From a virus: a DNA stretch of 64,000 nucleotides. Positions 7,527-60,570 of the stretch are shown one piece after another. Numbering within the stretch: position 1 is the stretch's first letter; each line of letters begins with the position of its first letter. Both the position numbers and the translations under genes were made by a program. The DNA lies in IMG/VR virus record IMGVR_UViG_3300045988_092861, positions 14,226-78,225 of that record; one strand, written 5' to 3'. A model generated the notes under the pieces. The model searched no databases, was not told the origin of the DNA, and was given only the letters and a program-made list of their open reading frames with translations.

Positions 7527-8144
7527 ATGGAAGAGATTAAGATTAATGACAAGGTAATTGAGTTACCTATTGACAGTATCGTGCCTCATGACGGTTCGCA
7601 CAAGACCGACGAGACGGCAGTACAGGCAATCATGCAGTCCATCAAGGATTTCGGCATCACTCAGCCTATTTCCGTTGACAAGAACAACGTAATTGTAACA
7701 GGTAACGGTGTGTATAAGGCAGCTAAGGCATTGGGAATGGATAAGGTTCCCTGCATTCGTCTTGACTATCTGACTGATGAGCAGATTAAGCAGTATAGAA
7801 TCGCTGATGACAAGACGTCCGAGTTCGCCACTTGGAACGAGAAGAAGCTTCGCAAGGAGCTCTCCTATCTCGGTGATCCTAACAGCATTCAGTTTGCTTT
7901 CGATGAGAGCATTGCCGGTATGCTTGGACTCAATGCTAAGCCAAAGGAACAGAAACCTGCGGCCGCACCTTCCAAGGCTGAGACTAACCATACGGCTAAG
8001 AAGGTCGTAACCGAAGCCCAGAAGGACCAGAAGTTCAAGGAGGAAATGAAGGGCGTTGAGGAGAATATCCAGGTCAAGCCTTCAGAGTATTATGAGTATA
8101 ATTGTTCCGCTTGCGGTAAACTGGTAAAAGTTAAGAAGCCATGA
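7527..8144 (+). CDS. ParB-like domain protein (degenerate catalytic motif) with C-terminal CxxC
   Basis: QPISVDKNNVIVTGNGVYKAAKALGMDKVPCI has GNGVY in place of GHTR. It ends YEYNCSACGKLVKVKKP. Confidence 0.6.
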   Translation: MEEIKINDKVIELPIDSIVPHDGSHKTDETAVQAIMQSIKDFGITQPISVDKNNVIVTGNGVYKAAKALGMDKVPCIRLDYLTDEQIKQYRIADDKTSEFATWNEKKLRKELSYLGDPNSIQFAFDESIAGMLGLNAKPKEQKPAAAPSKAETNHTAKKVVTEAQKDQKFKEEMKGVEENIQVKPSEYYEYNCSACGKLVKVKKP

Positions 8145-8677
8145 CAGATGAATCATCACAGCCGAAAGTAAAGTCTTTCGTACATAGAATTCCCAATCCT
8201 GTTGGAAGACCATACAAGATTAAGTCTTCTCAGGAATTATGGGATAAGTTTGTAGCTTACTGTGATGATGTTGAAAACGACCCTTGGCAGCAAAAGACTG
8301 GTAGCAATTCCATTGCAGGTGGCAGCGGCAAATCCACAAATTCCATGAGACAAGAGGTAAGGGTTTTCAGAAGAGCCTATACCCTTGTCGGATTTTGTGC
8401 TTTCTGTGGCATCGTTCAGAAATGGGCGGATTTCAAGAGAGGTAATCTTAAGAGACCAGGCTTTGAGCAGGTGATAACACAGATTGAGAATGTCGTGATG
8501 GCCCAGCAGATTGATGGCGCCATGCTTCATCAGTTTGATTCCAGCATTGTTGCAAGGCTCAACGGATTGGCAGACAAGCATATTCAAGAAGTAACAGGCA
8601 AGGATGGTGAGGACTTCAAGTTCCCTAAACTATCCTTGGATGATATTAAAGAATTACAGAAGATAAATGGACTTTGA
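8141..8677 (+). CDS. Terminase small subunit (putative)
   Basis: 178 aa, directly upstream of and overlapping TerL. The N-terminal GRPYKIKSSQELWDKFVAYCD resembles a TerS HTH region. Confidence 0.5.
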   Translation: MTDESSQPKVKSFVHRIPNPVGRPYKIKSSQELWDKFVAYCDDVENDPWQQKTGSNSIAGGSGKSTNSMRQEVRVFRRAYTLVGFCAFCGIVQKWADFKRGNLKRPGFEQVITQIENVVMAQQIDGAMLHQFDSSIVARLNGLADKHIQEVTGKDGEDFKFPKLSLDDIKELQKINGL

Positions 8678-10145
8678 GAAACAACGTTTTCTCCATAAGC
8701 AGTTAGTGGCTTCATCCCTACTGCAATTCACTACCAAGATGTTCGCCTATACTGCCCGACGTGAGTATGTTATAGGCGAACATCATAGGATTATATGTGA
8801 TGCGCTCATGGATGTTATAAGAGGAAAGACGAATAAGCTGATTATCAACATCAGCCCACGTTATGGAAAGACCCTCTTGTGCTCACAGATGTTCATCGCA
8901 TATGGTCTTGCGCTGAACCCTGCTTCAAAGTTTCTACATATATCTTATTCCGGAAGTCTCGTCCAAGACAACTCAATGGCGGTCAAGGACACGATAACTT
9001 CCGCATATTTCCAAACATTATTTCCGAATGTCAAAATCCGAAAGAACGATAACACAAGATCAAAATGGAGCACAACGGCAGGTGGTGGTGAGTATGCTAC
9101 ATCTACCTTGGGTCAGATCACAGGTTTTGGTGCAGGTCAGCCAGACTGGACCGAAGAAGACATAAAGAACATGGATAAGTTCATGGCTACGTTCAACCCT
9201 GGTCACTTTTCGGGAGCCATAGTTATCGATGACCCTTTACGACCAGATGATGCCTTGTCTGATAATGTAAGAGAGTCTATCAACAGACGCTTCGAGACAA
9301 CCATCCGTAACCGTGTAAACTCGCGTCACACGCCAATTATCATCGTCATGCAAAGATTGCACGAGCACGATTTGTGCGGTTACCTTCAAGAGATTGAGCC
9401 AAATGAGTGGAAGGTTGTTTCCCTCCCGGTAATACAGACAGACGAGGACGGAAAGGAGCGAGCATTGTGGCCATGGAAGCATACACTGGAAGAGCTGTAT
9501 AAAATCAAGCATGCCAGCGAGTTCGTATTTGAGACACAGTACATGCAGAACCCTACCCCTATGGAAGGTCTTATGTACCATGCCTTCAGAACATACGACG
9601 AGCTGCCGGACAGAAGGTATGCAAGAATGATTGGCAACTACACCGACTCGGCAGATACTGGTTTCGACTTCCTTTGCTCTATATGCTTCGATGCACATGA
9701 TGACGGTTACTATGTTACCGATGTTCTATACACTAAGCGACCGATGGAATACACGGAGCCAGCGCAAGCCAATATGGTTAAGCGTAATCAGACAGACGTG
9801 TGCTTCGTCGAGAGTAACAACGGTGGACGCTCTTATGCCCGCAATGTTGAGCGCATAACAAGGGAACACGGAAACAGAATCACCCAGTTCGTAACGTTCA
9901 CGCAATCGAAGAACAAACAGATTAGAATTTTCACTCGCTCCAGCGAGGTAAATAATAAATTAGTATTCCCTTCTAATTGGGAGCAGTTGTGGCCGGAGTT
10001 TGCCCACGACATGAAATCCTACAGAAAGGAAGGATATAACGCCCACGATGATGCGCCGGACGCTTGTACGGGCATCATAGAGAAGTGCGAGGAGTGGCTT
10101 AACAATGCTACCGATGCACAGCTCAGGCAAGGAGGATTCTTGTAA
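8667..10145 (+). CDS. terL: Terminase large subunit
   Basis: 492 aa with Walker A-like SPRYGKT, Walker B-like AIVIDDP and a C-terminal nuclease-like region. Its size and position are typical of TerL. Confidence 0.85.
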   Translation: MDFEKQRFLHKQLVASSLLQFTTKMFAYTARREYVIGEHHRIICDALMDVIRGKTNKLIINISPRYGKTLLCSQMFIAYGLALNPASKFLHISYSGSLVQDNSMAVKDTITSAYFQTLFPNVKIRKNDNTRSKWSTTAGGGEYATSTLGQITGFGAGQPDWTEEDIKNMDKFMATFNPGHFSGAIVIDDPLRPDDALSDNVRESINRRFETTIRNRVNSRHTPIIIVMQRLHEHDLCGYLQEIEPNEWKVVSLPVIQTDEDGKERALWPWKHTLEELYKIKHASEFVFETQYMQNPTPMEGLMYHAFRTYDELPDRRYARMIGNYTDSADTGFDFLCSICFDAHDDGYYVTDVLYTKRPMEYTEPAQANMVKRNQTDVCFVESNNGGRSYARNVERITREHGNRITQFVTFTQSKNKQIRIFTRSSEVNNKLVFPSNWEQLWPEFAHDMKSYRKEGYNAHDDAPDACTGIIEKCEEWLNNATDAQLRQGGFL

Positions 10146-10229: not shown

Positions 10230-10369
10230 TAGTATTTTTAACTAAAATAATTATTAGTATATTTGCATATATCAAATAATTTTCGTATCTTTGCATATAG
10301 ATAAAAGGTAGTACTTTTGACTATTCAGAGCCTACCTTACAAGTTGAACCAATTAAAATTATAAAGATT
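10230..10369 (+). promoter_or_regulatory. Family-1 promoter cassette, copy 2
   Basis: -33 TTTG 10262-10265, a 20-nt spacer, then -7 TATCTTTG 10286-10293. Leader hairpin AAGGTAG/CTACCTT at 10305-10338, then GAACCAATTAAAATT at 10346-10360. Differs from 18513-18652 at about 3 positions over about 143 nt. Confidence 0.65.
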
Positions 10370-14200: not shown

Positions 14201-14275
14201 AAGATTTGGCAAATTGGCAAAATTTTCGTACCTTTGCATATAGAAAAAGGGTAGTAATTTTGTCTAAGAGCCTAC
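14201..14275 (+). promoter_or_regulatory. Family-1-type promoter, copy 4 (partial cassette)
   Basis: -33 TTTG 14205-14208, a 20-nt spacer, then -7 TACCTTTG 14229-14236. The ATTTTCGTACCTTTGCATATAG core is identical to the other copies. A short GTAG/CTAC hairpin follows. Confidence 0.55.
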
Positions 14276-18512: not shown

Positions 18513-18652
18513 TAGTATTTTTAACTAAAATATCTATTAGTATATTTGCATATATCAAATAATTTTCGTACCTTTGCATATAGATAAAAGGTAGTACTTT
18601 TGACTATTCAGAGCCTACCTTACAAGTTGAACCAATTAAAATTATAAAGATT
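18513..18652 (+). promoter_or_regulatory. Family-1 promoter cassette, copy 3
   Basis: -33 TTTG 18545-18548 and -7 TACCTTTG 18569-18576. Hairpin at 18588-18621. GAACCAATTAAAATT at 18629-18643. Near-identical to copy 2. Confidence 0.65.
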
Positions 18653-54039: not shown

Positions 54040-54591
54040 ATGACTAAAGAGGAAGAAGATGAAGTACATCGGTTAGTTCAATCAGTCGGTGTTGTACAGT
54101 TGTCAAGAGTAATGTTTAAGGACATGGACGTTAGCGAAATTATAAACGTCATTATCCTTGCAGGTAGAGGCTACAGCATAAAGCTACTCACTTGGTTTAA
54201 GTATTATTGTGAAGTGATGCCTCTGTTTATCATGCTTTTTCATATTGCATGCATGGTAACATTTGCGTCTCATGAAAAAGAAATGTGCGTATGGTTTAAG
54301 GAGAATTGGGTATCGGCAGCATTTATCTATTTTTCCGTTTACATCCATCCGCTTGTGCTTATAATTGCGAGCAGATTCTTTTGGCTCTGCTACAGATGGC
54401 GTATTCCGATGATCATCTACCTATTTGGGATAAATGCTATTCATATCGTATACTGGAATGTTTTTACAACCAACGAAATGGTGGAAGCTAATGTTGTAAT
54501 ACTTGTAATGACCATTATATTTTATGTATATGGTTTTGCCGATAAGTATTTCTCAGGCAAGGGCTGTCAAAGTTTAATCTCTAGATTATAA
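54040..54591 (+). CDS. Polytopic membrane protein (moron candidate)
   Basis: 183 aa with 4-5 hydrophobic helices. Strong SD (AAAGGAGGAG) before the ATG. AT-rich island between the fibre and lysis modules. Confidence 0.55.
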   Translation: MTKEEEDEVHRLVQSVGVVQLSRVMFKDMDVSEIINVIILAGRGYSIKLLTWFKYYCEVMPLFIMLFHIACMVTFASHEKEMCVWFKENWVSAAFIYFSVYIHPLVLIIASRFFWLCYRWRIPMIIYLFGINAIHIVYWNVFTTNEMVEANVVILVMTIIFYVYGFADKYFSGKGCQSLISRL

Positions 54592-54595
54592 TGAT

Positions 54596-54940
54596 ATGGG
54601 AAAGTTATTTGGTTATCACACCTTGGGAGTGTTATTAAAATCGTTATCGGATTCTTGTTTTCGAGCAGACGAGCAAGAGAAGAGAGGGGAGAAGGTAACT
54701 GCTTGCGGAATGAGTAGCGATGAGATAGAAGACCTTTGTGAGAACTATCTGCCGTATGCTCTCAACCCGATGATGAGCACCGAGGAAGTCAAGGAGAAAC
54801 TGCACGTTTCTGATGCTACACTCAATCGTATGGTTGCAAGGGGTGACATTCCCAACGGCGAGTGCAAGAAAAGAGGACATACGAGATATTTTAAGAAGTG
54901 GGATATACTACACTACATTAAGAGCAAGAGAGGTAAGTGA
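54596..54940 (+). CDS. Excisionase/MerR-type HTH DNA-binding protein (putative)
   Basis: STEEVKEKLHVSDATLNRMVARGDIP...RYFKKWDILHYI fits the Xis-type HTH_17 pattern. The true start may be an internal Met. Confidence 0.5.
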   Translation: MGKLFGYHTLGVLLKSLSDSCFRADEQEKRGEKVTACGMSSDEIEDLCENYLPYALNPMMSTEEVKEKLHVSDATLNRMVARGDIPNGECKKRGHTRYFKKWDILHYIKSKRGK

Positions 54941-55200: not shown

Positions 55201-55665
55201 ATGGCAGATAGAATTAAAGATATTGTTGTAGGCGTAGTTCTTGCACTCCTCGCCTATCTTAAACCGATTGAAGGCGAGTTGTCTTCGCTTATGATCGTCT
55301 TCACCCTCAACTTTATTTTCGGTTATCTTAGTGGCATGATTGCAAAAGGAGAGAACTTCGAGTTGAAGAAAGCAGTTGTGTGCATCGGTCACGCTACCGT
55401 GTTTTTCGTCCTTTGCGCAGCCGTGTATGCTATTGGGAGGTTTAAAGGACAGATGGAAGGCTCGGTTCAATGCGTTTCCTTTATCTCGTATTTAGTTCTG
55501 TGGTTTTATGGATGCAATATTCTTAAGAACTTGAAGCTGATATTCAAAAAAGAAACTCCACCCTGGTACGTAGTCAGCTTCCTGTATTATCTTATGCGAT
55601 TTAGGTTTATTGATAAGATTCCCTATCTATCAGAATATCTTAATTACGCAGAAAAGGAGGAATGA
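55201..55665 (+). CDS. Holin (putative)
   Basis: 154 aa with 3-4 TM segments. Immediately upstream of the endolysin, with an ATGA overlap. Confidence 0.5.
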   Translation: MADRIKDIVVGVVLALLAYLKPIEGELSSLMIVFTLNFIFGYLSGMIAKGENFELKKAVVCIGHATVFFVLCAAVYAIGRFKGQMEGSVQCVSFISYLVLWFYGCNILKNLKLIFKKETPPWYVVSFLYYLMRFRFIDKIPYLSEYLNYAEKEE

Positions 55666-56204
55666 TTATGGCAGATTCAGCTAAACTTGTTCCGTTTATT
55701 CTTAGCTGGGAAACGGATAAATACACGAACAGAAAAAACGATAATGGGGGACCGACAAAGTACGGAATTACCCTTGCTACCTGGAGAAAAGTCGGGTACG
55801 ACAAGAATGGCGATGGTGTTCTCAACGAAGAAGACGTGAAACTCCTTACTGAGGAAGACTTCCATCGTGTCTTTAAGGAGAACTATTGGAATGCCTGCAA
55901 AGCAGACAAAATTCAAGATCAGAGTGTAGCCAACATGCTGGTAGACTTTGCTTATAATAGCGGAGTTAATAAAGCTGTAAAACATCTACAACTTGTATTA
56001 GGTATCACAGCAGATGGTATTATCGGTAATAAGACCCTGCATTCCATTAATAAATCAAACGGAGAAAGGCTATTCGAAGCCTTCAAGAAAGATAGAAAAG
56101 CTTATCTAAAGAGAAATGCAGTCGGTAACCAGAGATGTTTTCTTAAAGGATGGCTTCGCAGACTTAGCTACATTACGTATGGTAATCTAAAATTGAATAA
56201 ATGA
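55662..56204 (+). CDS. Endolysin, GH108 lysozyme-like with PG_binding_3-like C-terminus
   Basis: ILSWETDKYTNRKNDNGGPTKYGIT..., ...YWNACKADKI...DFAYNSG...ADGIIGNKT...GWLRRL follows the GH108 pattern. Confidence 0.85.
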   Translation: MIMADSAKLVPFILSWETDKYTNRKNDNGGPTKYGITLATWRKVGYDKNGDGVLNEEDVKLLTEEDFHRVFKENYWNACKADKIQDQSVANMLVDFAYNSGVNKAVKHLQLVLGITADGIIGNKTLHSINKSNGERLFEAFKKDRKAYLKRNAVGNQRCFLKGWLRRLSYITYGNLKLNK

Positions 56205-56800
56205 TGAAATGGCATGATATAAGATTTTGGAAATGGGCAACCACTACCTTAGTGGTAGGTCTTGCGCTTGTTTCTGTCTTAGGGTGCAGCACTCATAGAG
56301 CAGTAACTACACAAACCTTCATCACAGACAAGCAGAGTGAAAAGAAATTCGATTCCCTCTTCAACACCCGATTGTCTTATGCCTTCGAGCAATGGCAACA
56401 TATCCAAAAGCGAGAAACAGAAAAAGCTACCAAAGATAGCAGCTATGTAAAAGATAGCACAGCAACCCGATATGATGCTCAAGGGAATAAGATTGGTGAA
56501 GATCGTTTTCATTACGAGAGTCACTATTTATTTGAAAAGGAACGAAGAATGCTCCTCGATACCATCAGTACATATAAAGCATACAAAGATAGCTTTATAT
56601 ATTACAGAGAAAGATGTGACTCCTTATCAAAGATTGGTACCTCTCAGTTCTATAAGATTAACGCTCCTTCTATAAAAGAGAAATCTCTGTCAAGTATGCA
56701 GAAGATATTCTTAAAAACGGGGCAGATGTTTTGGTTCTGCTTTATACTCATAGTTATGTACTTATTATATATATCAAGGAAGAAAAAGAAAGAATCTTAG
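56201..56800 (+). CDS. Unimolecular spanin-like protein (lipoprotein signal plus C-terminal TM)
   Basis: N-terminal LVVGLALVSVLGC lipobox and C-terminal TM MFWFCFILIVMYLLYI followed by KKKK. ATGA overlap with the endolysin. Confidence 0.4.
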   Translation: MMKWHDIRFWKWATTTLVVGLALVSVLGCSTHRAVTTQTFITDKQSEKKFDSLFNTRLSYAFEQWQHIQKRETEKATKDSSYVKDSTATRYDAQGNKIGEDRFHYESHYLFEKERRMLLDTISTYKAYKDSFIYYRERCDSLSKIGTSQFYKINAPSIKEKSLSSMQKIFLKTGQMFWFCFILIVMYLLYISRKKKKES

Positions 56801-56843: not shown

Positions 56844-56880
56844 AGGGCGACTACTCGTGATGAGCGGTCGCCCTTTTTGT
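56844..56880 (+). terminator. Rho-independent terminator
   Basis: AGGGCGAC / GTCGCCCT stem followed by TTTTTGTTTG. It closes the lysis operon. Confidence 0.75.
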
Positions 56881-57007
56881 TTGCAATGTAAATTCTTCTG
56901 TTCTAAGAGGATAAAAAATGAGTCTACCTACTATCACACCAAACTGCTGATTTAGAGCCACTAACAGAAACTATGATAGAGTTATAGCCTATTTGCATAC
57001 TATTTTC

Positions 57008-57034
57008 TAACTTTGCATTTGTAACGTTACAAAT
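57008..57034 (+). promoter_or_regulatory. -7 box TAACTTTG followed by perfect 18-bp palindrome ATTTGTAACGTTACAAAT
   Basis: -7 box at 57008-57015. The palindrome at 57017-57034 covers the expected TSS, 40 nt upstream of ATG 57075. Confidence 0.55.
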
Positions 57035-57074
57035 AGTGTTAGAAAATATTAAGGTTAAATTAAAAATTCGGGAT

Positions 57075-58058
57075 ATGGAAAGTAAAACTTACGTGTTCAA
57101 TCCAGAGAGCGGCACAAGCGGCACAGGCTCTAATGGAATCTTGGCTATGCTTCCTGCACTCATGCAGAGACAGGGTGTTGACCCAGGTCTTATTGCACTC
57201 TTGAACAACCGTGGAAACGGAAATGGTTGGGGTGAAGACATCTTTGCTATCCTTTTGTTGTTCATACTTATGGGCAATAATGGTATGGGACTCTTCGGAG
57301 GTAATCGCTGCATGGGCTCTAACGGACAGGGCGGTGTTATGCCAATGCTTAACAATGATGCCAATACTGCCGTTATCATGCAGGCAGTTCAGCGCAATGG
57401 CTTTGATGTTCAGAGCTTGGCTACAGCCCTCAACACATCAAGTGACGCAGTCATGGCTGCAATCAATGGCTTAGGTCAGCAGATTTGCAACCTCGGCAAT
57501 CAGATGGGCATGAATGCTAATCAGATTTTGACAGCTATCATGCAGGGCAACAACGCTATCGCTACCCAGTTGGCAGAATGCTGCTGCAAGACCAATAACG
57601 CCATCACTGCAATGGACGGCAACATCAAGTTGTCTATCTGTCAGCAGACTCACGCCATCAATGATACGGCAAACGCCAATGCTTTGATGCTCCGTGACAA
57701 GGCTGATGCTAACAATCAGTCCGTCTTGGCTAAGTTGGATCAGATGCAGACACAGGCTATGCAGGACAAGCTCGATGCTTTGAGAGAGAAGAATAGTGCT
57801 CTGCTTGCTCAGATTTCCAATGAGCATCAGACACAGGCTTTGCAGGCTTATCAGGCGCAGGTTATCACCCCAGTAAATGCTGCTTTGGCTGCGCTGCAGG
57901 CAGAGGTAGCTGGCATCAAGTGCAAGTTGCCTAATACCATCAGCGTTCAGTACCCTCAGTACGGAGTATTTAACAAGGACGTTTATACTGCTGCTGCCAT
58001 GGGAGCTTATGCAGGTGATGTAGCGGCTTCTCGTTCTACTGTAGGATGTGGTTGTTAG
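57075..58058 (+). CDS. G/N/Q/A-rich Cys-containing protein with one hydrophobic segment (unknown function)
   Basis: ATG 57075 (the track start at 57036 is GTG). Features are GNGNGWGEDIFAILLLFILMGNNG, ECCCK, a long Q/A-rich coiled coil, and a GCGC end. Confidence 0.5.
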   Translation: MESKTYVFNPESGTSGTGSNGILAMLPALMQRQGVDPGLIALLNNRGNGNGWGEDIFAILLLFILMGNNGMGLFGGNRCMGSNGQGGVMPMLNNDANTAVIMQAVQRNGFDVQSLATALNTSSDAVMAAINGLGQQICNLGNQMGMNANQILTAIMQGNNAIATQLAECCCKTNNAITAMDGNIKLSICQQTHAINDTANANALMLRDKADANNQSVLAKLDQMQTQAMQDKLDALREKNSALLAQISNEHQTQALQAYQAQVITPVNAALAALQAEVAGIKCKLPNTISVQYPQYGVFNKDVYTAAAMGAYAGDVAASRSTVGCGC

Positions 58059-58072
58059 GAAAGGAGGTAACT

Positions 58073-58513
58073 ATGTTCCCTTTGTATCCATTCAATCCAT
58101 TCAACCCAATGTATTTCGGTCAGCGCAATGGTCTCAGACGAGTTGACATCGGTGGCATCTATGAGCTTAGAACGAATGCACAACAGGTAACAGAGGCAAG
58201 TGTGGACTTCGGTATCAATCCTAACTGTTACAATGCCCTGCCTTGTGAAAGTGTTGTCTTGCTTAAGATACACCAAGGTGTGCCTACCGCTAGTGCTGAC
58301 CTTCCTGTAAAGGTCGTAGTTCCTAGTGGCTCTACCACCGTGAACGGAACCACTAGCACGACTTCGGGAACTACAAAGTCTCCCGTGGTTGACCACAACG
58401 GAACGGCAGTAACAGGTGCAGGACTGGCTAACGTTACGGAAGCTTTGGCTTACATCAACAAGAAGAGCGGTACCATCCGATTGCTTGGGTTTCAGCAGCC
58501 AACAGGCGGCTAA
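58073..58513 (+). CDS. Hypothetical T/S/G-rich beta-type protein
   Basis: ATG 58073 lies 6 nt after AAGGAGG (58061-58067). N-terminal FPLYPFNPFNPMYFG. The upstream ATG at 58046 lies inside the previous gene. Confidence 0.5.
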   Translation: MFPLYPFNPFNPMYFGQRNGLRRVDIGGIYELRTNAQQVTEASVDFGINPNCYNALPCESVVLLKIHQGVPTASADLPVKVVVPSGSTTVNGTTSTTSGTTKSPVVDHNGTAVTGAGLANVTEALAYINKKSGTIRLLGFQQPTGG

Positions 58514-58569
58514 CGGAGTATTAACTACGGAGCAGGTGGCAACATCTGCTCCATTAAAAGAGAAAGAAA

Positions 58570-59094
58570 ATGTTTCAAGGACTAAGACAGTCTTCTCTCT
58601 TCTACATCTTAGACAAGGGAGGAGAAAAGCCGACACTAAGAATCGGTCAAGTAATATCGGTTAGCAATCCTCAACAGAAATACCCAAGTTACGTGCCTGG
58701 TCAAACACCGACATTAGAAACTACGGTAGATGTTAAGGTGCAAGTAGAAGACCAGCAAGTAAACTTTGAAAAGTTGCCTTCAACGGCACAGATAGTAAAC
58801 TTCGGCAATGAAGGTGTTGTTGTCAGTGACAACAGGGAAGCTATGTGCGCTGAGATTGATGCTATGTTGCGGCATTCCAAGGGAGTCGTGGAAAGTGTAG
58901 ATTACCACAATGGAGTCATAAGCTCCTGCGAGGAAATGCTTACTAGAATCAACCCACAGATTGCCAAGGAGAAGCAACAGGAGCAGGACATCAATAACCT
59001 CAAATCAGAGGTTAGTGGCATGAAGGGTACGCTTTCCAATATTGAATCCATGCTGTCTAAGGCTTTGAGCAGTGGTAACAATTTTAAAAAGTAA
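58570..59094 (+). CDS. Hypothetical protein with C-terminal coiled coil
   Basis: 174-aa ORF. Confidence 0.5.
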   Translation: MFQGLRQSSLFYILDKGGEKPTLRIGQVISVSNPQQKYPSYVPGQTPTLETTVDVKVQVEDQQVNFEKLPSTAQIVNFGNEGVVVSDNREAMCAEIDAMLRHSKGVVESVDYHNGVISSCEEMLTRINPQIAKEKQQEQDINNLKSEVSGMKGTLSNIESMLSKALSSGNNFKK

Positions 59095-59099
59095 TTGCT

Positions 59100-59339
59100 A
59101 TGGGATATATGGTAGAAATTACGGAAAACAAGTTCGATGAGCTTGTTGACAACTGCGAGGATATGATTCGTGCAGGTGGTAAGGTTATGAAGTGCTTGGA
59201 TAGTTTGAAGCGCGAGCGTATGGGAAACCGTATGCCGATGCCAGACTATCGTGACAAGTGGGACGATGATGATTGGCGCGACGAAGACCGCTATGGAGAG
59301 CGACGCTACTATGGTCGCCGTGGCGGTGGACGTTACTAA
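59100..59339 (+). CDS. Small protein with D/W/R/Y/G-rich tail
   Basis: 79 aa ending DDDDWRDEDRYGERRYYGRRGGGRY. Confidence 0.45.
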   Translation: MGYMVEITENKFDELVDNCEDMIRAGGKVMKCLDSLKRERMGNRMPMPDYRDKWDDDDWRDEDRYGERRYYGRRGGGRY

Positions 59340-59390
59340 TGTTTAATTCGGTGGTGGGGATTTTCCCTGCCACCCTTAAAAGAAAGAGCT

Positions 59391-59819
59391 ATGGGAAGAT
59401 GTAGAATACCTTTGGATGCTTACGATATGAAGCCAGAAGGAATGATAGCATATCTGAGATATAATGGCTGGCACTTCAACAAAAAGGCTTGTGAGTGGGC
59501 AGTTGCGCAGATGAGAAAATACAACCCAGTCACCAAAAAGGATGAGGAGGTTGAATACATGGATAAGGATAAGGTTGAATCCATCCTTACCAAGCAGGGA
59601 GTGACGCTTGAAAATAATGTAGGCTATGATCATGTCTATGTGGCAAACATGGTTAAGGCTGATTTCTATAAGTCTTCCATCGAGGACGAAGCTCACATGG
59701 CTTTGTTTGTGAAAGACATGGTTGATGATTCCGACCAGAAGGATGGTTTCATCTTCAACCGATTCTATGCCGACTGCAACCATAATGGCATCGGTATTCC
59801 ATGGGATGATATTTTATGA
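59391..59819 (+). CDS. Hypothetical phage-associated protein
   Basis: 142 aa. YLRYNGWHFNKKACEWAVAQM...YVANMVKADFY resembles an uncharacterised family I recall from other phages; I cannot name it. Confidence 0.5.
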   Translation: MGRCRIPLDAYDMKPEGMIAYLRYNGWHFNKKACEWAVAQMRKYNPVTKKDEEVEYMDKDKVESILTKQGVTLENNVGYDHVYVANMVKADFYKSSIEDEAHMALFVKDMVDDSDQKDGFIFNRFYADCNHNGIGIPWDDIL

Positions 59820-60196
59820 TTAGTCAAGAGATATATCTAGAGAAGTACGATTGGAGGATTCTTGTGTTCTACGGTTTGAAAGAAGAAGATACCGATGAGG
59901 TATGCAACTCCCTTGTGCAGATAGGCTGCACAGAAAAGGCGGTCGAAAGCGCAAGGGAGCATTGCTTGCGTGGAATGCCCAATACAGGTCTAACCTACTC
60001 CAACCTTGCCGGAAGAAAGAGCGTGGTTGCTGTCAGTAGGACCACATCGGAATACGAGTTTGTGAATACTGTCACACACGAAATGTTCCACGTTGTCACT
60101 CACATCTGCGAATCACTAGGTGTTGACTTGAAAGACGAAGAGCCTTGCTATATGATGGGATGGCTCTGCCAGGCAGTTAGTAGGATATTCATTTAA
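59816..60196 (+). CDS. Putative zinc metallopeptidase (HExxH)
   Basis: The VTHEMFHVVTH motif. 126 aa. ATGA overlap with the upstream gene. Confidence 0.4.
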   Translation: MISQEIYLEKYDWRILVFYGLKEEDTDEVCNSLVQIGCTEKAVESAREHCLRGMPNTGLTYSNLAGRKSVVAVSRTTSEYEFVNTVTHEMFHVVTHICESLGVDLKDEEPCYMMGWLCQAVSRIFI

Positions 60197-60206
60197 AACT
60201 TAAAAT

Positions 60207-60422
60207 ATGACGGACATTAAATTAATGGTGGATGCTGCAAGGCAGCTAAACCAGACTTGGAAAACGTGTAGTAATGGTTTGGAAATGGATAATGTTCCAA
60301 ACGATGTGTATAATGCTTTGTGCGAAGTGGATGAAGCCGTCACCAATCTGATAGACAAGATTGGTGACGCCACAAAAATTATTACATTAAGCTGTATATA
60401 TAAAAAACTCTTAACTTCTTGA
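60207..60422 (+). CDS. Hypothetical protein
   Basis: 71-aa ORF. Confidence 0.4.
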   Translation: MTDIKLMVDAARQLNQTWKTCSNGLEMDNVPNDVYNALCEVDEAVTNLIDKIGDATKIITLSCIYKKLLTS

Positions 60423-60440
60423 TACTCAGCGAGTTAAATT

Positions 60441-60570
60441 TAGTATTTTTAACTAAAATAAAGTGTGGTATATTTGTATATATCACATTTTTTTTGTACT
60501 TTTGCATATAGTAAGAGTGGTTATTTTGATTAACCACAGCTTATGTTGAACCAATTAAAATTTTATAAAG
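60441..60570 (+). promoter_or_regulatory. Family-1 promoter cassette, copy 5 (diverged)
   Basis: TAGTATTTTTAACTAAAAT. -33 TTTG 60473-60476, a 20-nt spacer, then -7 TACTTTTG 60497-60504. Hairpin GTGGTTA/TAACCAC at 60517-60537. GAACCAATTAAAATT at 60548-60562. Confidence 0.6.

Follow-up and report, generated by a model that had tools for sequence, protein, structure and literature searches.

We investigated a block of same-strand genes that follows the lysis operon in 64,000 nucleotides (nt) of viral DNA (IMG/VR virus record IMGVR_UViG_3300045988_092861, positions 14,226 to 78,225; this whole stretch is referred to as the window). Six of these genes, P1 to P6, are near certain to be members of a conserved phage module, which hundreds of gut Bacteroidales phages share in one and the same gene order, and the seventh, P7, belongs to the phage backbone. 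Taking the chain of evidence as a whole, we tentatively propose, with rather less than even confidence, that P1-P6 represent, in this phage, an exchangeable and self-regulated late module that is very widespread among phages and uncharacterised. A preliminary description of this DNA had listed seven same-strand genes, and we found all of them with the features given there: the CCC at residues 169-171 and the GCGC end of P1, the FPLYPF... start, the acidic/RGG tail, the HEMFH motif and the 71-amino-acid (aa) open reading frame (ORF). The genes and the elements that accompany them, numbered as in the window, are as follows.

57008-57015, + strand: Bacteroidota-type -7 promoter box TAACTTTG, one of 11 TAnnTTTGCA sites
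57017-57044, + strand: inverted repeat at the expected transcription start; 18-bp palindrome with core GTAACGTTAC (57021-57030), then AATAGTG, GTTAGAA
57075-58058, + strand: P1, 327 aa; phrog_16490, 1.2e-48
58073-58513, + strand: P2, 146 aa; apparently beta-rich, with a Thr/Ser-rich loop; type a; AAGGAGG at 58061
58570-59094, + strand: P3, 174 aa; conserved N-terminal domain and C-terminal coiled coil; phrog_28898, 5e-40
59100-59339, + strand: P4, 79 aa; helical N-terminal half, then an acidic and an Arg/Gly/Tyr-rich tail
59350-59374, + strand: intergenic hairpin between P4 and P5; 11-bp stem, GC-rich, without a U-tract
59391-59819, + strand: P5, 142 aa, DUF7841 protein; Pfam PF25223; phrog_38431, 1.6e-47
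59816-60196, + strand: P6, 126 aa, minimal HExxH protein; phrog_1365, 2.5e-11; start overlaps the P5 stop (ATGA)
60207-60422, + strand: P7, 71 aa; backbone gene; dN/dS (ratio of nonsynonymous to synonymous substitution rates) 0.13-0.19

That P1-P6 form a module is indicated by their gene order in loci retrieved with P1 from IMG/VR and GTDB, of which only those long enough were counted. The order P1-(P2)-P3-P4-P5-P6 was collinear on one strand in 80 of 80 IMG/VR loci and was the same in all 26 GTDB genome loci that extend far enough. The GTDB hosts are Segatella copri N016-9 (99% identical), Prevotella, Leyella, Paraprevotella xylaniphila YIT 11841, Bacteroides sp. ET71, Phocaeicola, Porphyromonadaceae and Paludibacteraceae; the module is also present on two contigs of metagenome-assembled genomes labelled Bacillota and Christensenellaceae, labels that stem from binning and are unverified. 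Four GenBank records have the same order, namely Bacteroides phage C3_41T2LP, a plaque isolate on B. uniformis, Dulem virus 40, cr271_1 (Intestiviridae) and cr116_1 (Steigviridae). In the Suoliviridae phages cr4_1 and cr109_1 the order is DUF7841-P1-P2-P3, where a gene annotated 'RNA polymerase sigma factor/ubiquitin-like' encodes the DUF7841 protein (E 1e-43). The virus vir335, for which the record gives Methanomassiliicoccales as host, has a P1 homologue (E 1e-36) with both the hydrophobic segment and the CCC motif. Homologues of P1, P2a and P3 were also seen on a 2272-bp contig of Vibrio olivae CECT 8064 (L112), a source far removed from the gut anaerobes that account for all other hits, and possibly a contaminant.

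The preliminary description had taken the position of the cassette as typical of lysogenic-conversion or defence/counter-defence cargo. We found the set collinear in more than 100 loci, and every context examined was phage DNA, including that of virulent crAss-like phages, usually after tail-fibre and lysis genes. For example, in Bacteroides sp. ET71 and P. xylaniphila the module comes after genes for tail fibres and for a holin or endolysin, and in L111 it is immediately upstream of a holin and an amidase. In the L043/L045 lineages it follows an ORF of 2200-2500 aa and faces structural genes or terminase on the opposite strand. A lysis-gene homologue was detected within 3 kb in 67 of 113 loci, a lower bound given the small BLAST query set.

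The genes had also been called orphans, a term that does not hold for four of the seven, which match PHROG or Pfam families with E values of 1e-11 to 1e-48. These families, phrog_16490 (P1), phrog_28898 (P3), DUF7841/phrog_38431 (P5) and phrog_1365 (P6), are catalogued with no function, structure or phenotype attached. The P1 family comprised 2503 clusters at 90% identity in a word-based search, and an exhaustive search gave 1161 clusters at 50% identity with E<=1e-3, or 577 with E<=1e-10. Compared with relatives, all seven genes have dN/dS of 0-0.2, indicating purifying selection; P1 and its homologue in L008 differ by no amino acid (dN 0 at dS 0.13). Searches for known functions were largely blank: PADLOC-DB models gave no match better than E 0.088 against 10 proteins, NCBIfam models matched no module protein, and PDB profile searches with P1, P2, P3, P5 and P6 returned coiled-coil or chance matches only. 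A hydrophobic segment of membrane grade is found in P1 only, with P2-P7 having neither such a segment nor a signal peptide.

The boundaries of the module are defined by sister phages, which we retrieved via the downstream 315-aa gene. Among these close relatives 44 carry P1-P6, and the other three examined (L133, L137 and L151) carry a different four-gene set in the slot (L133:3395-5703, also in L137 and L151) behind the same promoter and palindrome. The three share the surrounding backbone: the membrane protein, helix-turn-helix (HTH), holin, endolysin and spanin-like genes come before the slot, and P7, the downstream genes and the integrase come after it. P7, which was found in close relatives only, is thus retained while P1-P6 are exchanged, and we therefore regard it as a backbone gene and P1-P6 as the module proper. 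Accordingly, the seven-gene unit of the preliminary description stands as seven real ORFs, but the unit itself consists of six genes plus P7. Its insulation was borne out: the upstream terminator, the unit's own promoter and the start-site inverted repeat are all present. A terminator sought after P7 was not found. The behaviour of an exchangeable module was confirmed, both by the different gene set behind the same promoter and by the swapping of P2 alleles described below. No empty slot was seen among the sister phages examined that lack P1-P6. As an analogous set fills the slot in these phages, the slot appears to require such a module, which argues against dispensable cargo.

The alternative set resembles the module in layout. 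Its 245-aa protein has a Gly-zipper hydrophobic segment, an LFGGNR motif, a coiled coil and a CNC/GCNCG tail, an architecture shared with P1. Homology between the two was not detectable (hhalign 2.6%), and all they have in common is a 24-residue LFGGNR/Gly-rich stretch. The other members are a Q-rich coiled-coil protein, a 145-aa protein and a divergent DUF7841 protein (Pfam 30.5 bits); a relation of the set's 165-aa protein to P3 was not detectable, and PHROG gave no matches to the set. In a separate case, a deletion in L039 (IMG/VR contig 3300045988_072839, ~8001-9200) fuses P1 residues 1-211 to P5, with loss of the P1 C-terminus, P2, P3 and P4. Fused P1-DUF7841 proteins of this kind also occur among the P1 matches (P0031 and P0067). 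Partial loss of the module can therefore occur, at least in the assembled contig L039.

The promoter of the module was examined in the window and across lineages. Both elements reported previously, a -7 box and a perfect 18-bp palindrome over the expected transcription start site, are present (57008-57015 and 57017-57034). The window has 11 copies of TAnnTTTGCA, each of them at an operon start on the + strand; the expected number is 3.9, and none of 100 shuffles reached 11. The palindrome, ATTTGTAACGTTACAAAT, is nested in an imperfect inverted repeat at 57005-57044. Its core GTAACGTTAC and the adjoining AATAGTGTTAG each occur once within the window, placing the module promoter outside the repeated promoter families of the phage. 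One such family is a ~90-bp repeated element with tandem -7 boxes (tagtatttttaactaaaat...TATATTTGCA...TACCTTTGCA...), found at 60440-60540, 1690-1760, 10240-10330 and 18520-18610; it marks several operon starts, including that of the unit after P7, and differs from the promoter of the module.

The -7 box upstream of P1 homologues is kept in every lineage, with an inverted repeat 3-7 nt after the box. In class I, to which the window belongs, the sequence of the 10-bp core GTAACGTTAC is kept even in phages with a P1 of only ~57% identity; as RNA this repeat folds weakly (z -1.9), and one variant has a 2-nt central insertion. In class II, comprising nine other lineages, a hairpin occupies the same place, with arms of different sequence that include G-U pairs and a loop that is often AAUAG. 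A single consensus structure for the class II leaders could not be written on the MAFFT alignment, in which the stems are out of register, and they were analyzed by per-sequence folding with a summed shuffle test. Their summed minimum free energy was -71.8, compared with -30.9 +/- 5.8 for shuffles (z -7.1, 0 of 2000). The start-site repeat may be a DNA operator or a 5' RNA hairpin. In L133 the alternative gene set is still preceded by the terminator, the -7 box and the GTAACGTTAC-AATAGTGTTAG leader. Within the unit, the hairpin at 59350-59374 (-19.6 kcal/mol, z -3.1) divides the genes between P4 and P5; it may serve in processing or stability, or act as a partial terminator between P1-P4 and P5-P7.

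P1 residues 32-327 align to profile positions 7-281 of 286 in phrog_16490. The protein begins with a conserved N-terminus, MESKTYVF, followed by a hydrophobic segment (residues 56-74, KD19 2.02) flanked by Gly/Asn-rich stretches, then long helices and the GCGC tail, and CCC169-171, C189 and C283 are invariant in 23 sequences. An AF2 model from this 23-sequence alignment is all-helical, with one helix of ~97 residues. Its confidence is low (pLDDT 41), and the model was unusable as a query for fold searches. Depositors have labelled P1 homologues 'outer capsid protein/viral fiber' or 'spike protein'.

P2 follows a strong ribosome-binding site. Two AAGGAGG sites had been described in the cassette, of which we could locate a single exact one, that at 58061 before P2. 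The P2 start, MFPLYPFNPF, includes neither a signal peptide nor a lipobox Cys, and the maximum KD19 is 0.94. P2 types a and b are homologous (hhalign 96%, E 3e-9); the type-c proteins found in the P2 position of Dulem virus 40 and cr116_1 have no detectable relation to either. P2 has no Pfam, PDB or PHROG assignment, and Pfam was blank on ten P2 variants. Among near-identical phages P2 alone is ~75% identical, with dS of 1.3-1.4 compared with 0.1-0.5 in the neighbouring genes and dN/dS of 0.11. Diversifying selection is ruled out by this low dN/dS at dS ~1.3, and the values point to an old allele imported by recombination rather than to positive selection. The type of P2 varies with the last dozen residues of P1. 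A Cys-rich P1 tail pairs with P2a or P2c (28 pairs) and an aromatic ...GFWG-type tail with P2b (36 pairs and several FW variants), with only one or two mixed cases among 73 non-redundant pairs. This covariation fits docking of P2 on the P1 tail.

The C-terminus of P3 has a weak match to phrog_473, 'virion structural protein' (1.4e-3), and its PDB matches were coiled-coil noise only. The architecture of P4 is kept at the same position in most loci (dN/dS 0.07-0.2). P5 scores 86.2 bits against PF25223, for which the gathering cut-off is 25.2, and its AF2 model is of much higher quality than that of P1 (pLDDT 86, pTM 0.79). A fold search with the P5 model gave no PDB match at E<0.9; in BFVD its sole matches were DUF7841 proteins of crAss-like and other phages, and our literature search found no paper mentioning DUF7841. 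In P6, residues H88, E89, H92, H96 and E108 are invariant in the alignment. P6 scores below the Pfam gathering thresholds for zincins (SprT-like, M78, Reprolysin_3), its best being 15.3 bits for SprT-like, where 25.6 are needed. Among 11 P6 homologues three had weak Pfam matches and none matched MPTase-PolyVal, and the homologue in C3_41T2LP is annotated 'PolyVal metallopeptidase superfamily'. We consider P6 a putative Zn-peptidase.

Evidence on timing comes from TAG recoding in cr4_1 (L001) and cr109_1 (L004). In these phages in-frame TAG codons number 1-2 in P1 and 7-9 in P3 and are absent from P2 and the DUF7841 gene, an uneven spread over the module. The adjacent genes also contain them, with 3 in the endolysin, 4 in a LysB-like gene, 3-5 in virion structural genes and 5-6 in tail tubular genes. 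In a passage of the review PMC10136315 that cites Borges et al. 2022, TAG recoding in crAss-like phages is reported to mark late-translated structural and lysis genes. Since P1 and P3 are recoded like the lysis and structural genes, we infer a late function in these virulent phages. Late expression of the module is moderately supported by this pattern of codons.

Upstream of the module, the window contains the following genes and terminator.

54040-54591, + strand: polytopic membrane protein, partner of the HTH_17 gene (paired with 54596-54940)
54596-54940, + strand: HTH_17/MerR-type small DNA-binding protein; Pfam HTH_17, 1e-9
55201-55665, + strand: holin, lysis operon
55662-56204, + strand: GH108 endolysin; Pfam Glyco_hydro_108 (7e-22) and PG_binding_3
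56201-56800, + strand: u-spanin-like 199-aa protein; lipobox-like N-terminus (...VSVLGC) and C-terminal transmembrane (TM) segment
56844-56880, + strand: intrinsic terminator ending the lysis operon; hairpin 56844-56874, then U-tract UUUUUG

The strong terminator that had been placed at the end of the lysis operon was confirmed as a hairpin followed by a U-tract (-23.7 kcal/mol, z -5.1, matched by 0 of 200 shuffles). The predicted layout of the 56201-56800 product is that of a unimolecular spanin. A protein with the same lipobox and C-terminal TM layout is encoded in the lysis region of cr116_1 (L005:3430-3810), a 188-aa protein of Dulem virus 40 (L003:5389-5955) has a Cys pair within its N-terminal hydrophobic stretch, and a 151-aa protein in L086 (2979-3434) may be of the u-spanin-like kind. 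HTH_17 homologues lie directly 5' of P1 in L046-L058, L086, cr116_1 and cr271_1; in the window the lysis genes intervene, and the HTH_17 gene is located one operon further upstream. The pair of membrane protein and HTH_17 genes adjoins P1 upstream in many phages (L046-L058, with analogous pairs in cr116_1 and cr271_1). From this arrangement the 54040-54940 pair may belong functionally with P1-P6, and the HTH_17 protein is a candidate regulator of the module.

We propose that the module would act late in the lytic cycle, alongside the lysis and structural genes, rather than in the lysogen. The single Gly-flanked hydrophobic segment of P1 would hold the protein in the cytoplasmic membrane, with the long helical Cys-bearing part as a stalk and the C-terminal tail docking the exchangeable, apparently beta-rich P2. 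P3, P4, P5 and P6 carry no export signals, which would place the complex on the cytoplasmic face of the membrane, and a membrane-anchored P1-P2 complex on this face is plausible. Such a complex would most likely modulate a membrane-linked late event, whether the timing or course of lysis, egress or membrane-associated assembly; which of these processes it serves is a guess. Control of the module would lie with the repeat next to the promoter, possibly in combination with the linked HTH_17 protein. Several points weigh against this proposal. The topology and oligomeric state of P1 are guesses, given a model of pLDDT 41, and the covariation of the P1 tail with P2 could reflect mere co-transfer of adjacent DNA. 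The private promoter differs from the shared motifs of the late operons and would suit expression from a prophage too. With the u-spanin-like gene the lysis cassette is already complete, leaving no known lysis step missing. Furthermore, only 67 of 113 loci, as a lower bound, have a recognisable lysis gene within 3 kb, with other lineages placing the module after what appears to be a giant structural ORF, and the archaeal virus vir335 carries P1 alone and none of the partner genes.

The preliminary description regarded the cassette as typical lysogenic-conversion or defence/counter-defence cargo. In this explanation the genes would be expressed from the prophage as a membrane superinfection-exclusion (Sie) or defence device, or as another lysogenic-conversion function, switched by an operator at the private promoter. 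The insulation by a strong terminator, the promoter and palindrome unlike those of other operons, and the location at the prophage end near the integrase are all in keeping with such cargo, as are the exchange of blocks in the slot and of P2 alleles, reminiscent of accessory-gene hotspots, and the predicted membrane anchor of P1, a feature of many Sie proteins. However, the same genes are found in plaque-isolated C3_41T2LP and in crAss-like phages of the Intestiviridae, Steigviridae and Suoliviridae, P1 and P3 are TAG-recoded together with late genes, and in L043/L045 the module is flanked by a giant phage ORF and by structural or packaging genes that run on the opposite strand. Neither PADLOC nor NCBIfam produced a match, and for defence or counter-defence nothing that we found here speaks in favour. 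A typical moron would not be expected to comprise six strongly purifying-selected genes that stay collinear in over 100 loci, and an analogous set fills the slot in every examined sister phage without P1-P6. Lysogenic conversion is therefore unlikely, and we give prophage-expressed cargo as a whole a low probability. An accessory virion fibre or decoration, with P1 as coiled-coil shaft, P2 as binding head, P3 as adaptor and P4-P6 as assembly or maturation factors, would explain the depositors' fibre and spike labels on P1 homologues, the P2 allele swapping and type switching that recall receptor-binding modules, the frequent location 3' of tail-fibre genes, the weak match of P3 to phrog_473 (1.4e-3) and the TAG recoding common to the module and structural genes. 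We consider it improbable, as the conserved membrane-grade segment would be odd in a soluble fibre, the labels rest on coiled-coil likeness while PDB profile searches gave coiled-coil noise only, and the module is under a separate promoter and is unchanged across podovirus-like crAss phages and long-tailed prophages with unrelated virion modules. A literature search on the fibre annotation and BclA-like crAss proteins found nothing relevant.

A role in counter-defence or host takeover would have P6 as a PolyVal/SprT-like metallopeptidase, P4 as an acidic nucleic-acid mimic or binder and P5 acting on host factors. PolyVal domains are said to be linked to phage-host conflict, and the label on the C3_41T2LP homologue of P6, the invariant HExxH and the acidic run and RGG-like tail of P4 could be read this way. 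Nevertheless, P6 falls under every Pfam gathering score (best SprT-like 15.3 bits versus 25.6), and the explanation leaves membrane-anchored P1, along with P2 and P3, unaccounted for. The late, TAG-recoded context would be the wrong time to counter restriction, and the fixed six-gene order argues for one machine rather than separate effectors; we regard this role as very improbable. Returning to the late membrane-associated module, a bolder extension, which we consider doubtful, is that the module and its sister analogue are an undescribed machine of gut-anaerobe viruses. It would comprise a membrane-anchored P1 stalk, an exchangeable P2 head and four cytoplasmic partners, among them a minimal zincin and a protein whose fold has no PDB match. 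It would serve a late membrane step outside the holin-endolysin-spanin scheme, such as lysis timing, egress or membrane-bound assembly, and have its own conserved switch at the transcription start, either a hairpin or an operator.

Few viruses of the human gut are as abundant as the crAss-like and other phages of Bacteroidales, and a role is known for only a minority of their genes. A six-gene block whose order holds from Segatella prophages through to three families of crAss-like phages, with strong purifying selection and a private regulatory element, makes a good candidate for a component of the infection cycle that is still missing. The module is approachable, as there is a cultured phage (C3_41T2LP on B. 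uniformis), natural block replacements are available for comparison, and prophages with the module occur in the strain-derived assemblies of Segatella copri N016-9, Paraprevotella xylaniphila YIT 11841 and Bacteroides sp. ET71. Our results also call for caution in annotation, both in labelling the P1 family 'viral fibre' or 'spike' and in naming post-lysis units lysogenic-conversion cargo from position alone.

Among known systems, P1 is reminiscent of the spanins (two-component lambda Rz/Rz1; unimolecular T1 gp11), with a membrane segment near its N-terminus, coiled coils with conserved cysteines after it and, often, holin and endolysin genes alongside. However, P2 lacks both a lipobox and a signal peptide, the P2 gene is not nested within that of P1, P1 is twice as large as Rz, and a separate u-spanin-like gene is present at 56201-56800. 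In addition, a P1 homologue occurs in a virus with Methanomassiliicoccales as the host on record, and the partners of P1 have no export signals, so that the bulk of the complex is probably cytoplasmic. With no lipoprotein partner and a u-spanin candidate upstream, we rejected a spanin reading of P1/P2. The morons, such as lambda bor/lom by position, share with the module an autonomous unit, bounded by promoter and terminator, after the lysis genes near the prophage end and an exchangeable slot; the module differs in its presence in virulent phages, its TAG recoding with late genes, its six collinear conserved genes and the lack of any empty slot among the sister phages examined. P6 is like the minimal zincins (SprT-like/PolyVal/M78) in its invariant HExxH, the downstream His and Glu and its minimal-domain size, but its Pfam matches are sub-threshold and cover the motif helix only. 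P2 recalls the BclA C-terminal domain and ExsFA-type TNF (tumour necrosis factor)-like trimers as a small, apparently beta-rich, exchangeable protein with a stalk-like partner, although profile searches with P2 (Pfam, PDB) were blank. Lastly, the lysis-timing proteins (T4 RI/RIII antiholins, P2 LysA/LysC) are small, lie in the membrane or the cytoplasm, have their genes next to those for lysis and tune a membrane event late in infection. There is no relation in sequence or fold to the module, and one or two proteins act there compared with six here; it is nevertheless the functional analogy with these proteins that underlies our preferred view of P1-P6 as a possible modulator of a late, membrane-linked step.

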